A stretch of DNA of 64,000 bases from Escherichia coli (GTDB taxonomy: Bacteria > Pseudomonadota > Gammaproteobacteria > Enterobacterales > Enterobacteriaceae), in the NCBI RefSeq assembly GCF_017348835.2, contig NZ_CP071375.1; one strand, written 5' to 3'. Positions 42,101 to 45,100 of this stretch are shown one piece after another; the first letter of the stretch is position 1, and every line of letters begins with the position of its first letter. The position numbers are program-made.

Positions 42101-45100
42101 CGTGTGTCATTCAGGCTTCCGGACTACAGCCCACTCCATATCTGATTTAATACACTATCCCGGCCGGGAGGAATAATGACATTTAAACATTATGATGTTG
42201 TCAGGGCGGCGTCGCCGTCAGACCTTGCGGAAAAGCTGACACACAAACTGAAAGAGGGCTGGCAGCCATATGGCGGACCGGTTGCCATTACGCCGTACAC
42301 ACTGATGCAGGCGGTGGCTATTGAAGGAGATCCACAGGTCGGCCCTTCATCTGAGCCGGACTGGTTCTACGTGGTTGTGCTTGCCGGACAGTCCAACGGC
42401 ATGGCCTACGGTGAAGGGCTTCCGTTACCGGATTCTTACGATGCTCCGGATCCGCGCATTAAACAGCTGGCGCGCCGCAGCACGGTAACTCCGGGTGGAG
42501 AGAGTTGTACGTATAACGACATCATCCCGGCTGACCACTGTCTGCATGATGTGCAGGATATGAGTACGCTGAATCATCCGAAGGCAGACCTGAGCAAAGG
42601 GCAGTACGGCTGTGTCGGCCAGGGCTTACATATTGCCAAAAAACTGCTTCCGTATATCCCGAATAACGCGGGGATCCTGCTGGTACCATGCTGTCGTGGT
42701 GGTTCGGCATTCACCCAGGGCGCGGAGGGGACATTCAGTGCGGACACGGGGGCCAGCCAGGATTCGGCACGCTGGGGTGTGGGTAAACCGTTATATCAGG
42801 ACCTGATTGCGCGCACTAAAGCTGCATTACAGAAGAACCCGAAAAATGTGTTGCTGGCGGTGTGCTGGATGCAGGGAGAGTTTGACATGAGCGCCGCCAC
42901 CCACGCACAGCAACCTGCGCTGTTTACAGCCATGCTGACACAGTTTCGTGCTGACCTCTCCGTGTTTAACGCGCAGTGCCATGGTGGCAGTGCTGCAGAT
43001 GTGCCGTGGATTTGTGGTGACACGACGTATTACTGGAAAAATACATACGCTACCCAGTACGACACCGTGTACGGCGGGTATAAAAACAGGGAGAGTGAGG
43101 GCGTTTATTTTGTGCCCTTCATGACAGACGGTAACGGTGTCAATACCGCCACTAACGCGCCGGCAGAAGATCCGGATATTCCGGCATCAGGATATTACGG
43201 TGCGGCATCGAGAACGAATGGAAACCAGGTATCATCAAACCGCCCGACACATTTCAGTTCATGGGCGCGCAGGAGCATTATTCCGGATCGTCTGGCAACC
43301 GCTATTCTGAACGCAGCCGGGCGCACCTCAGCCTTCATCAGTGGTAAGGCACCGGAAATCAAACCCTCGCCCGGCGGCAACACGCCATCGGGTCCGTCTG
43401 CAGATACGTCCGTTCGCACAATCTCCCTGCTGCCGGCAGACGGAGAGGCTGCTGCGCAGGGCTGGAGCATTAAGGATGGCGGAATTCAGTTGTCAGATGG
43501 TGTATTTAAGATCACCAAGCAGAGCAATAAAACCTGGTCCCTGACGCATCCGGTGGATGACGCAATTACCCTGCTGACACAGGGCGGCAGACTGACCTGT
43601 AAGTTCCGCCTGTCAGGCGCGCTGACCAACAATCAGTTCGGGCTGGGGATTTATCTGTATACGGATGCTCCCGTTCCTGATGGTGTGGCGATGACGGGTA
43701 CCGGTAATCCGTTCCTGATGTCGTACTTCACTCAGACCACTGACGGCAGAGTGAATCTGATGCATCACAGGAAAGCCGGAAACACGAAGCTGGGGGAGTT
43801 CGGCGATTACGGTAACGACTGGCAGACGCTGGAGCTGGTGTTCACCGCCGGCAGTGCCACGGTTACTCCGAAACTGAATGGAGTGGCTGGCCCGGCATTC
43901 CAGGTTATAAAAGACAGTCTGACACTGGGACTGAATGCGCTGACGCTGACGGATGTTACAAAAAATGCAGCGTATGGCGTTGAGATAGAAAGTCTGGTGC
44001 TGGAGATAAATGCACCGGCAGCATAATAAAAAAAGAGCCAGCGACTGACCTGAAAGAAGACGCTGGCTAAAAGGCCTTATATGTTTGTAGAGACTTATTT
44101 TTCACAGACAGCAATGATGCCTGTCAATATATTATCAATATGCGGATTGTTTCAGTTACAGATGCTTTATTAAGGAAAAAAACAGCCAGCACTGACTTTC
44201 GGTGGAGAGGTGCTGGCTCAGAAGGATAGTTGGATTTCACATGATACTTATGTCTGGCGGTATATTTTCTGACAGACAGTGACGGATGTTGTCAAGATAT
44301 TGTGTCATTTATAACCTGAACCAGGGGGGCCGGAATGTTATCTGGCATTTTTAGCAGAGCCTGAATGCCATAATCACGGCTCCCGGAGTTGGCCGTCAGT
44401 GGGTGACACTGGCGGCTTTTTGTTTTCCTTTACTTTCATTTTCTGTCGGCGGTGACGGAGACATACATCAGATGGAAAAAATCACAACAGGTGTGTCATA
44501 CACCACGTCAGCGGTAGGGACGGGATACTGGTTACTGCAACTGCTGGACAAAGTCTCTCCGTCCCAGTGGGTGGCAATAGGTGTACTGGGGAGTCTGCTG
44601 TTTGGCCTGCTGACGTATCTGACTAACCTGTATTTCAAAATCAGAGAGGACCGGCGTAAGGCGGTGCGGGGAGAGTAAAGTGATGAAGAAAAAATACGAA
44701 CTGGTTGTTAAAGGGATAAATAATTACCCGGATAAGATTACTGTTACTGTGGCACTGGAAATTGGTGGGTATCCGTCACTGTTGTTGCCAGATGTGGCGA
44801 TTAGTCTTGACCGTACTGAAGGTGCCACGCTGGAGTTTTACGAAGCTGAGGCGAAAAAGCAGGCGAAGCAGTTTTTCATGGATGTTGCTGCCGGGTTATG
44901 TGAAGGGGATGGTCCGTTGCCGGAAAAGCGGCCCATCATTTTAGAGGCGCAGGATGTGTTGATAACCTACAGAGGAAAACTACCGGGAATAATTACTGGT
45001 TCTCTGAAGACTCCACCGCTGGCCTGAAGACTTAACATATCCAGGGATTTGAAATCGATAAATCCTGATAAATATCCATGAACGCAAAAATCAGATACGG

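Follow-up and report, generated by a model that had tools for sequence, protein, structure and literature searches.

The closest described relative of the gene considered here is YdfR of Escherichia coli K-12 (b1555, P76160), which is encoded in the cryptic prophage Qin within the gene order essQ-ydfR-rrrQ, where ydfR starts 4 nt after the stop codon of a class II holin gene and is followed by a gene for an RrrQ-type lysozyme. A bacterial two-hybrid screen is reported to have identified residues 1-72 of K-12 YdfR as a binder of RNase G and of the catalytic, N-terminal half of RNase E; the full-length protein gave a two-hybrid signal with Rne(1-597), Rne(1-598) co-eluted with Strep-YdfR, the Strep-YdfR eluate contained abundant DNase-resistant nucleic acid, and the protein is reported to co-purify with RNA (PMC13232886). 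In that 2026 study of RNase E interactions, ydfR figured among four genes of unknown function that are transcribed together; the identity of these genes as Qin holin, endolysin and spanin genes was left unremarked, and ydfR was not linked to phage late expression or lysis (PMC13232886). Here we analyse a homolog in a 64,000-nt stretch of an E. coli genome (assembly GCF_017348835.2, contig NZ_CP071375.1; hereafter the window), namely a 114-aa open reading frame (ORF) at positions 44683-45027 on the plus strand, located between genes for a pinholin and a signal-arrest-release (SAR) endolysin. The ORF is almost certainly a real accessory gene of the YdfR family. The full proposal, that it is a genuine YdfR/DUF1327 accessory gene expressed late and acting on RNase E or RNA, with the window copy being a truncated orphan, is plausible but remains tentative.

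A preliminary description of this stretch had seen no recognisable motif in the ORF product, which proved wrong. The protein matches the Pfam family DUF1327 (PF07041) over residues 1-112 with an E-value of 4.7e-46 (155.4 bits, with a cut-off of 25) and PHROG 406 with an E-value of 1.8e-64, both families carrying the label 'unknown function'. It is identical to RefSeq WP_000731236.1, a 'YdfR family protein', and exactly this protein is present on at least 990 contigs. At the DNA level the ORF is 99% identical to phage H-19B, whose original GenBank record leaves it unannotated, and 95-100% identical to many Shiga toxin (Stx) phages of the Stx1a and Stx2c types and to some Stx2a phages. No NCBIfam model matched the ORF, a PDB search with the family profile returned nothing below an E-value of 0.8, and PADLOC found no defence-protein match for the ORF, for the longer forms of the family or for the antisense partners described below. 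A comparison with the double-stranded RNA-binding domain (PF00035; alpha-beta-beta-beta-alpha) revealed no similarity of fold or sequence that would place the ORF in that family. The gene, its family and the holin-YdfR-endolysin position are already catalogued in Pfam, RefSeq and the K-12 genome, and the finding therefore counts as already known. The portions of the literature available to the search held no discussion of DUF1327 or of the holin-endolysin ORF in Stx phages, and the gene went without mention in the accessible parts of Stx-phage papers.

The ORF behaves as a coding sequence by several measures. The ratio of nonsynonymous to synonymous substitution rates (dN/dS) over the first 72 codons, estimated by the Nei-Gojobori method between alleles with dS ranging from 0.06 to saturation, is 0.21-0.52, and the protein alignment shows that the alleles are mosaic and have recombined in frame. 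Poor conservation and atypical codon usage, named in the preliminary description as signs of a non-coding stretch, were not found: the ORF is conserved, and the codon log-odds are positive in its own frame (+0.17) and negative in the other five (-0.25 to -0.57). The junction with the upstream holin gene S, consisting of the TAA stop codon, 4 nt and the ATG, is present in each of the 79 IMG/VR loci whose upstream sequence suffices to assess it, as well as in Qin, mEp460, Evi, PhiR42_1 and PhiR63_1. The alternative of a chance ORF in the holin-endolysin spacer, which the missing H-19B annotation might favour, is contradicted by Pfam and PHROG E-values of 1e-46 to 1e-64, by the dN/dS values, the frame-specific codon usage and the conserved start geometry, and by the occurrence of DUF1327 family members in five genera. 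We rejected it on the Pfam match, dN/dS, codon bias and conservation pattern, and regard its probability as practically nil.

The immediate neighbourhood of the ORF comprises the following elements, the assignments of the two flanking genes in the preliminary description being confirmed by homology.

44472-44678, plus strand: S21-type class II holin (pinholin by homology), 68 aa; Pfam PF04971 (P21 holin S), E-value 1.6e-32; the start follows the 207-nt form used in the RefSeq annotation
44668-44675, plus strand: Shine-Dalgarno-like run GGGGAGAG in the final holin codons, read from the sequence
44683-44898, plus strand: ORF codons 1-72, conserved DUF1327 N-terminal domain, delimited by an AlphaFold2 (AF2) model, alignments and dN/dS
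44899-45027, plus strand: ORF codons 73-114 and stop codon, Escherichia-specific middle segment, delimited by a predicted local distance difference test score (pLDDT) below 50 and by alignment columns
45013-45018, plus strand: CCACCG microhomology at the junction of a 457-bp deletion, from the alignment with the long-form loci L005, L006 and L012
45028-45077, plus strand: 50-nt spacer between the ORF and the endolysin gene R, homologous by alignment to the last 50 nt before R in long-form loci
45078-45611, plus strand: RrrQ-type lysozyme (SAR endolysin by homology), 177 aa, with a Gly/Ala-rich N-terminus like RrrQ; PF00959, E-value 1.4e-23

In the ORF listing of the window, the reading frame runs from the ATG at 44683 to the TGA at 45025-45027, exactly as first described. 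The holin stop codon TAA (44676-44678) is followed by the four nucleotides AGTG, so that the ORF begins at the fifth nucleotide after the stop, and 50 nt separate its end at 45027 from the endolysin ATG at 45078; both distances had been given correctly. A GGAG within the 3' end of the holin gene lies 9 nt 5' of the ORF start codon, a geometry compatible with translational coupling. A consensus scan identified no plus-strand promoter between the holin gene and the ORF, and the spacer downstream of the ORF contained no hairpin resembling a terminator; two weak plus-strand hairpins, 44763-44778 and 44916-44932, both fall inside the ORF. Transcription of the ORF thus seems to come from the late promoter, and its translation to rely on that of the holin. 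Its co-expression with the lysis genes, as proposed in the preliminary description, is likely on the evidence of this GGAG and of the invariant 4-nt junction. An autonomous moron was also considered and was rejected for lack of an own promoter or terminator in the same scan.

The presence of an ORF between holin and endolysin genes, initially regarded as an unusual interruption, is common among E. coli genomes. Of 5426 complete E. coli genomes, 3158 contain DNA related to the ORF, at 6734 places in total, and 5160 contain the S21-type holin, at 16754 places; therefore at least about 40% of such E. coli cassettes hold the ORF, and K-12 Qin has the same arrangement. Within a phage collection, 101 records contain the ORF, compared with 369 that match the S-ORF-R query region, and the ORF-bearing phages include mEp460, Evi and the PhiR series. 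The cassette comparison proposed in the preliminary description also revealed cassettes that lack the ORF. In phage 933W, R starts 4 nt after S, in the exact slot occupied here by the ORF start, and in DLP12 essD is directly followed by an overlapping rrrD. Since 933W and DLP12 have nothing between S and R, the ORF is best described as an accessory gene that lysis cassettes of the S21 type may or may not carry in lambdoid prophages of Escherichia, and not as a core lysis component, in agreement with the earlier suggestion of an accessory gene. Its GC content (47%) compares with 52-56% for S, R and Rz and is similar to that of an Ant-like insert located further downstream (46%).

The window shows the holin-YdfR-RrrQ-type-lysozyme synteny, which is limited to the Escherichia subfamily of DUF1327 genes. 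The N-terminal domain of K-12 YdfR is 47% identical to that of the window protein over residues 1-74, whereas the K-12 protein has only 103 aa, ends in an unrelated C-terminal tail and has a stop codon overlapping the rrrQ start. The window ORF instead has a middle segment (residues 73-112) and the 50-nt spacer before R. A different relationship connects the window copy to forms of 176-183 aa, such as P0107, P0113 and the PhiR63_1 gene, which are identical or nearly identical to it over residues 1-112 and have the same S and R neighbours, but possess about 65 extra C-terminal residues, predicted to form two helices (123-142 and 147-181 in the long-form model), and a 321-nt stretch 5' of R with a convergent antisense ORF. 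Aligned with three such loci (L005, L006 and L012), the window lacks 457 bp, with the junction at CCACCG, and the last residues of the ORF (L-A-stop) are made by the deletion junction. The deleted DNA encodes the C-terminal helical module on one strand and, on the opposite strand, an 86-87-aa ORF of PHROG families 18136 or 2572. The window ORF is an orphaned, C-terminally truncated derivative whose convergent small gene was lost with the 457-bp deletion. Folding of the remaining spacer between the ORF and R gave no significant RNA structure (z = 0.21), and an Rfam scan of 43800-46200 produced no match.

The ORF product is a soluble, acidic protein (pI 5.5) with a maximal 19-residue Kyte-Doolittle hydropathy of 1.18, and the hydropathy scan revealed no membrane segment and no signal-like N-terminus. 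The AF2 model of residues 1-72 contains three strands and one helix (E5-14, E18-27, E38-43 and H50-69; pLDDT 72-88), whereas residues 73-114 have pLDDT values below 50 and no confident structure. The N-terminal domain of about 72 aa is the sole part conserved across the family; its family-wide motifs YEL.VK and (D/E)R.EG..L(E)FYE.EA are present in the window protein, and Y5, Y53 and E54 are invariant or near-invariant over 22 divergent members of a deep alignment. The family is modular: the N-terminal domain occurs in all members, the middle segment is added in most Escherichia members, and two C-terminal helices are further added in the 176-183-aa forms. The middle segment is missing from K-12 YdfR, from Evi and from all distant members. 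Residues 73-112 (44899-45018) are predicted to be disordered, yet the columns R83-K109 are near-invariant among Escherichia members.

Because the family-wide domain corresponds to the K-12 fragment reported to bind RNase E, action on RNase E or RNA is the most likely mechanism of the ORF product, although we consider it possible rather than probable. Under this proposal, the best supported of those considered, the ORF would be read from the Q-dependent late transcript and its translation would probably be coupled to that of the holin, as suggested by the GGAG and the fixed 4-nt junction. The product would be a small, acidic, soluble cytoplasmic protein whose late-phase target is RNase E or RNA, so that RNA decay changes while the phage grows lytically, and not the membrane hole or murein. 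Several observations weigh against the proposal. RNase E binding is known for K-12 YdfR only, at the 47% identity given above; the K-12 pull-down was done without a nuclease control, and the contact may therefore be RNA-bridged (PMC13232886). Overexpression of ydfR altered few transcripts (PMC13232886). In addition, the conservation of the middle segment lacks an explanation, and the strict holin adjacency in all Escherichia copies could still reflect a role related to lysis.

The latter possibility corresponds to a suggestion of the preliminary description, an antiholin or modulator of lysis timing. In its most specific form, the ORF product would be a cytoplasmic regulator that holds back triggering by attaching either to the charged C-terminal tail of the pinholin in the cytoplasm or to the short N-terminal stretch of the SAR endolysin on that side, similar to T4 RIII, which acts on holin T from the cytoplasm. 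In all Escherichia loci examined, the ORF comes next after a class II holin gene and shows the geometry of translational coupling, which is consistent with such a timer, as is the holin of the window itself. Its upstream region (44460-44474) reads ATA CAT CAG ATG, with no upstream Met and no dual-start motif, as in H-19B and YYZ-2008; hence this holin has no built-in antiholin. Dual-start holins are found in 933W and PV15-279 (ATG TAC CAG ATG) and in Qin (ATG AAA TCA ATG, MKSM). Among the ORF-bearing IMG/VR loci, however, 52 have ATG TAC CAG and two ATG GAC CAG, with the upstream ATG kept, while 21 are single-start (20 with ATA CAT CAG and one with ATA CAT CGG). The ORF is thus found with dual-start and single-start holins alike and is not a substitute for the antiholin isoform; compensation for a missing dual start was accordingly rejected. 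Furthermore, 933W has an otherwise similar cassette without the ORF, the ORF product has neither a membrane segment nor a signal peptide, and distant homologs lie in tail or packaging regions, with no holin next to them. One further point in favour of the timer is that the supplementary hit lists of a screen for envelope leakiness with chlorophenol red-beta-D-galactopyranoside include the Keio ydfR mutant (PMC3879167). This phenotype may be polar on rrrQ, a likely confounder because the Keio kan cassette would sit directly upstream of that gene. The ORF is a separate gene with a maximal hydropathy of 1.18 and resembles neither a holin isoform nor a protein that uses a transmembrane or SAR domain to contact the holin. 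The data do not support an antiholin role; no positive evidence for it emerged from the hydropathy, the indifference to dual-start status or the location of distant members, and a cytoplasmic lysis-timing regulator or antiholin is, in our view, quite unlikely.

The distribution of distant relatives bears on the same question. When 1.84 billion representative proteins were searched exhaustively with a profile, only 94 DUF1327 clusters were retrieved. The distant members are stand-alone N-terminal domains of 72-76 aa in prophages of Yersinia, Serratia, Sodalis and Pantoea, located between gpM- and gpL-like tail genes, after gpI-like genes, in the gap between tail chaperone and tape measure genes, upstream of HNH/terminase genes, or upstream of unrelated holins; among the loci examined, none lies between holin and endolysin genes and none beside a class II holin. 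Eight of the nine distinct distant modules contain a convergent ORF (70-100 aa) whose end lies 9-27 nt beyond the DUF1327 stop. These distant partners belong to at least two unrelated families. Members of family A demonstrate 59-65% identity between phage Evi, where a 72-aa DUF1327 protein occupies the S-R slot together with its partner, and tail or pre-holin contexts, and those of family B show 33-52% identity across three contexts; both families are under purifying selection (dN 0.2-0.9, dS saturated). Profile-profile comparison found the partner families unrelated to each other and to the antisense ORFs of E. coli, and a PDB search gave no match for them. As the distant relatives occur amid genes for tail or packaging functions and in most cases have a convergent partner, the link of the family to lysis looks positional, and the conserved unit looks like a mobile two-gene module that is adjacent to a holin only in the Escherichia lineage.

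This arrangement also underlies a serious alternative for the window gene, namely that the ORF is the surviving half of a mobile module of two convergent genes, its partner having been deleted, and that it is a functionless or decaying remnant; in intact modules, the DUF1327 product of the late strand would neutralise or switch off the opposite-strand, probably lysogen-expressed partner. Consistent with it are the convergent ORFs of the distant modules, the similarity of family A partners between the Evi S-R slot and other contexts, the purifying selection on the partners, the overlap of the long Escherichia forms with an antisense ORF of PHROG families, and the origin of the window copy by the 457-bp deletion. 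Short forms without a partner, of 114-116 aa or of the 103-aa K-12 type, are nevertheless very common, as the at least 990 contigs with the window protein illustrate, and the low dN/dS of the N-terminal domain argues for autonomous function. The partner families are mutually unrelated, and the 'partner' could therefore be variable cargo at an insertion hot spot; its expression is a conjecture. We consider this alternative unlikely overall. A broader scenario, in which DUF1327/YdfR is the late-strand half of a mobile convergent module that inserts across the late operons of Enterobacterales siphophages (tail, packaging and lysis), in which its N-terminal domain would be a RapZ- or Srd-like RNase E/RNA adaptor that shuts down the oppositely transcribed, lysogen-expressed partner, or RNAs of the host, at the onset of late transcription, and in which the window ORF would be an orphan keeping the RNase E-binding domain, is very doubtful.

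Taken together over lysis, tail and packaging contexts and several Enterobacterales genera, the convergent ORFs encode soluble proteins of 70-100 aa that belong to at least four unrelated families, and in most family members they end 9-27 nt after the DUF1327 gene or overlap it. Those recorded in the compared loci are as follows.

L005, 3464-3727, minus strand: convergent ORF
L006, 3479-3739, minus strand: convergent ORF
L010, 2744-3040, minus strand: convergent ORF
L096, 1879-2160, minus strand: convergent ORF
L097, 1340-1639, minus strand: convergent ORF
L099, 754-966, minus strand: convergent ORF
L102, 335-616, minus strand: convergent ORF
L103, 3244-3519, minus strand: convergent ORF
L105, 768-1070, minus strand: convergent ORF
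L107, 942-1232, minus strand: convergent ORF

The prophage in the window is an stx-negative lambdoid prophage with the gene order Q, two tRNAs, TerB-like, DUF3927, nanS-p, S, YdfR, R, ant-like and Rz. The other genes of the surrounding region are listed below.

42176-44026: NanS-p-type esterase, upstream of the holin
45878-46432, plus strand: Ant-like gene (P22_AR_N and ORF11CD3 domains) between R and Rz; PF10547, E-value 5.8e-42
46586-47053, plus strand: Rz i-spanin, the end of the lysis cassette; PF03245, E-value 3.2e-50, and 933W annotation
46806-46991, plus strand: Rz1, embedded in Rz

The tRNAs between Q and the TerB-family gene are of the Met-CAT/Ile2 type and Arg-TCT. According to the RefSeq annotation of a locus with 99.9% identity, the TerB-family and DUF3927 genes at 40752-42176 occupy the place of stxAB in Stx phages. 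A strong terminator-like hairpin on the plus strand (44391-44417), with an 11-bp stem containing seven GC pairs and followed by TTTTGTTTTC, is located between nanS-p and S, about 55 nt 5' of the holin start; Q antitermination presumably allows late transcription to continue past it. Downstream, the Ant-like gene is a second insert of lower GC content (46%) in the lysis cassette, and 933W carries an Ant-like gene too. The endolysin has Asp at residue 35 (GAT, 45180-45182), the position aligned to the catalytic Glu of the R21/RrrD/RrrQ-type lysozymes (E-x8-D-x5-T). The window protein reads DEKDGNH there, whereas all seven relatives in the alignment, H-19B among them, have Glu, and LDEKEGNH is found in every one of the 51 IMG/VR copies; the exact variant occurs on only 12 contigs. 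Judged by this substitution, the endolysin of the window prophage may have reduced activity or none.

More than half of the complete E. coli genomes carry this gene, which is located inside the lysis cassettes of Stx-type prophages and has a role that is still unproven, and the value of the present analysis is that of a lead. The question is experimentally tractable, as the conserved unit is a 72-aa domain that travels across genera with a convergent small gene.

Among known systems, the morons of lambdoid phages are similar to the ORF in being present or absent between collinear genes, in having a GC content below that of their neighbours, and in occupying several insertion points across the family, but a classical moron has its own promoter and terminator. 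Antiholins, including the dual-start isoforms S21-71 and lambda S107, T4 RI and RIII, and P1 LydB, are likewise encoded in or beside the holin gene and made simultaneously with it; in contrast, the ORF product is no holin isoform and has no transmembrane domain, and the gene is indifferent to the dual-start status of the holin and has homologs away from holins. Two further phage proteins modulate RNase E, namely phiKZ Dip and T4 Srd, the latter of which attaches to the N-terminal half of the enzyme and stimulates the decay of host mRNA. Although the likeness is by binding partner only, with no relationship of sequence or fold seen, the YdfR family resembles Srd and Dip in comprising small cytoplasmic phage proteins, of which the K-12 homolog binds the N-terminal half of RNase E (PMC13232886).

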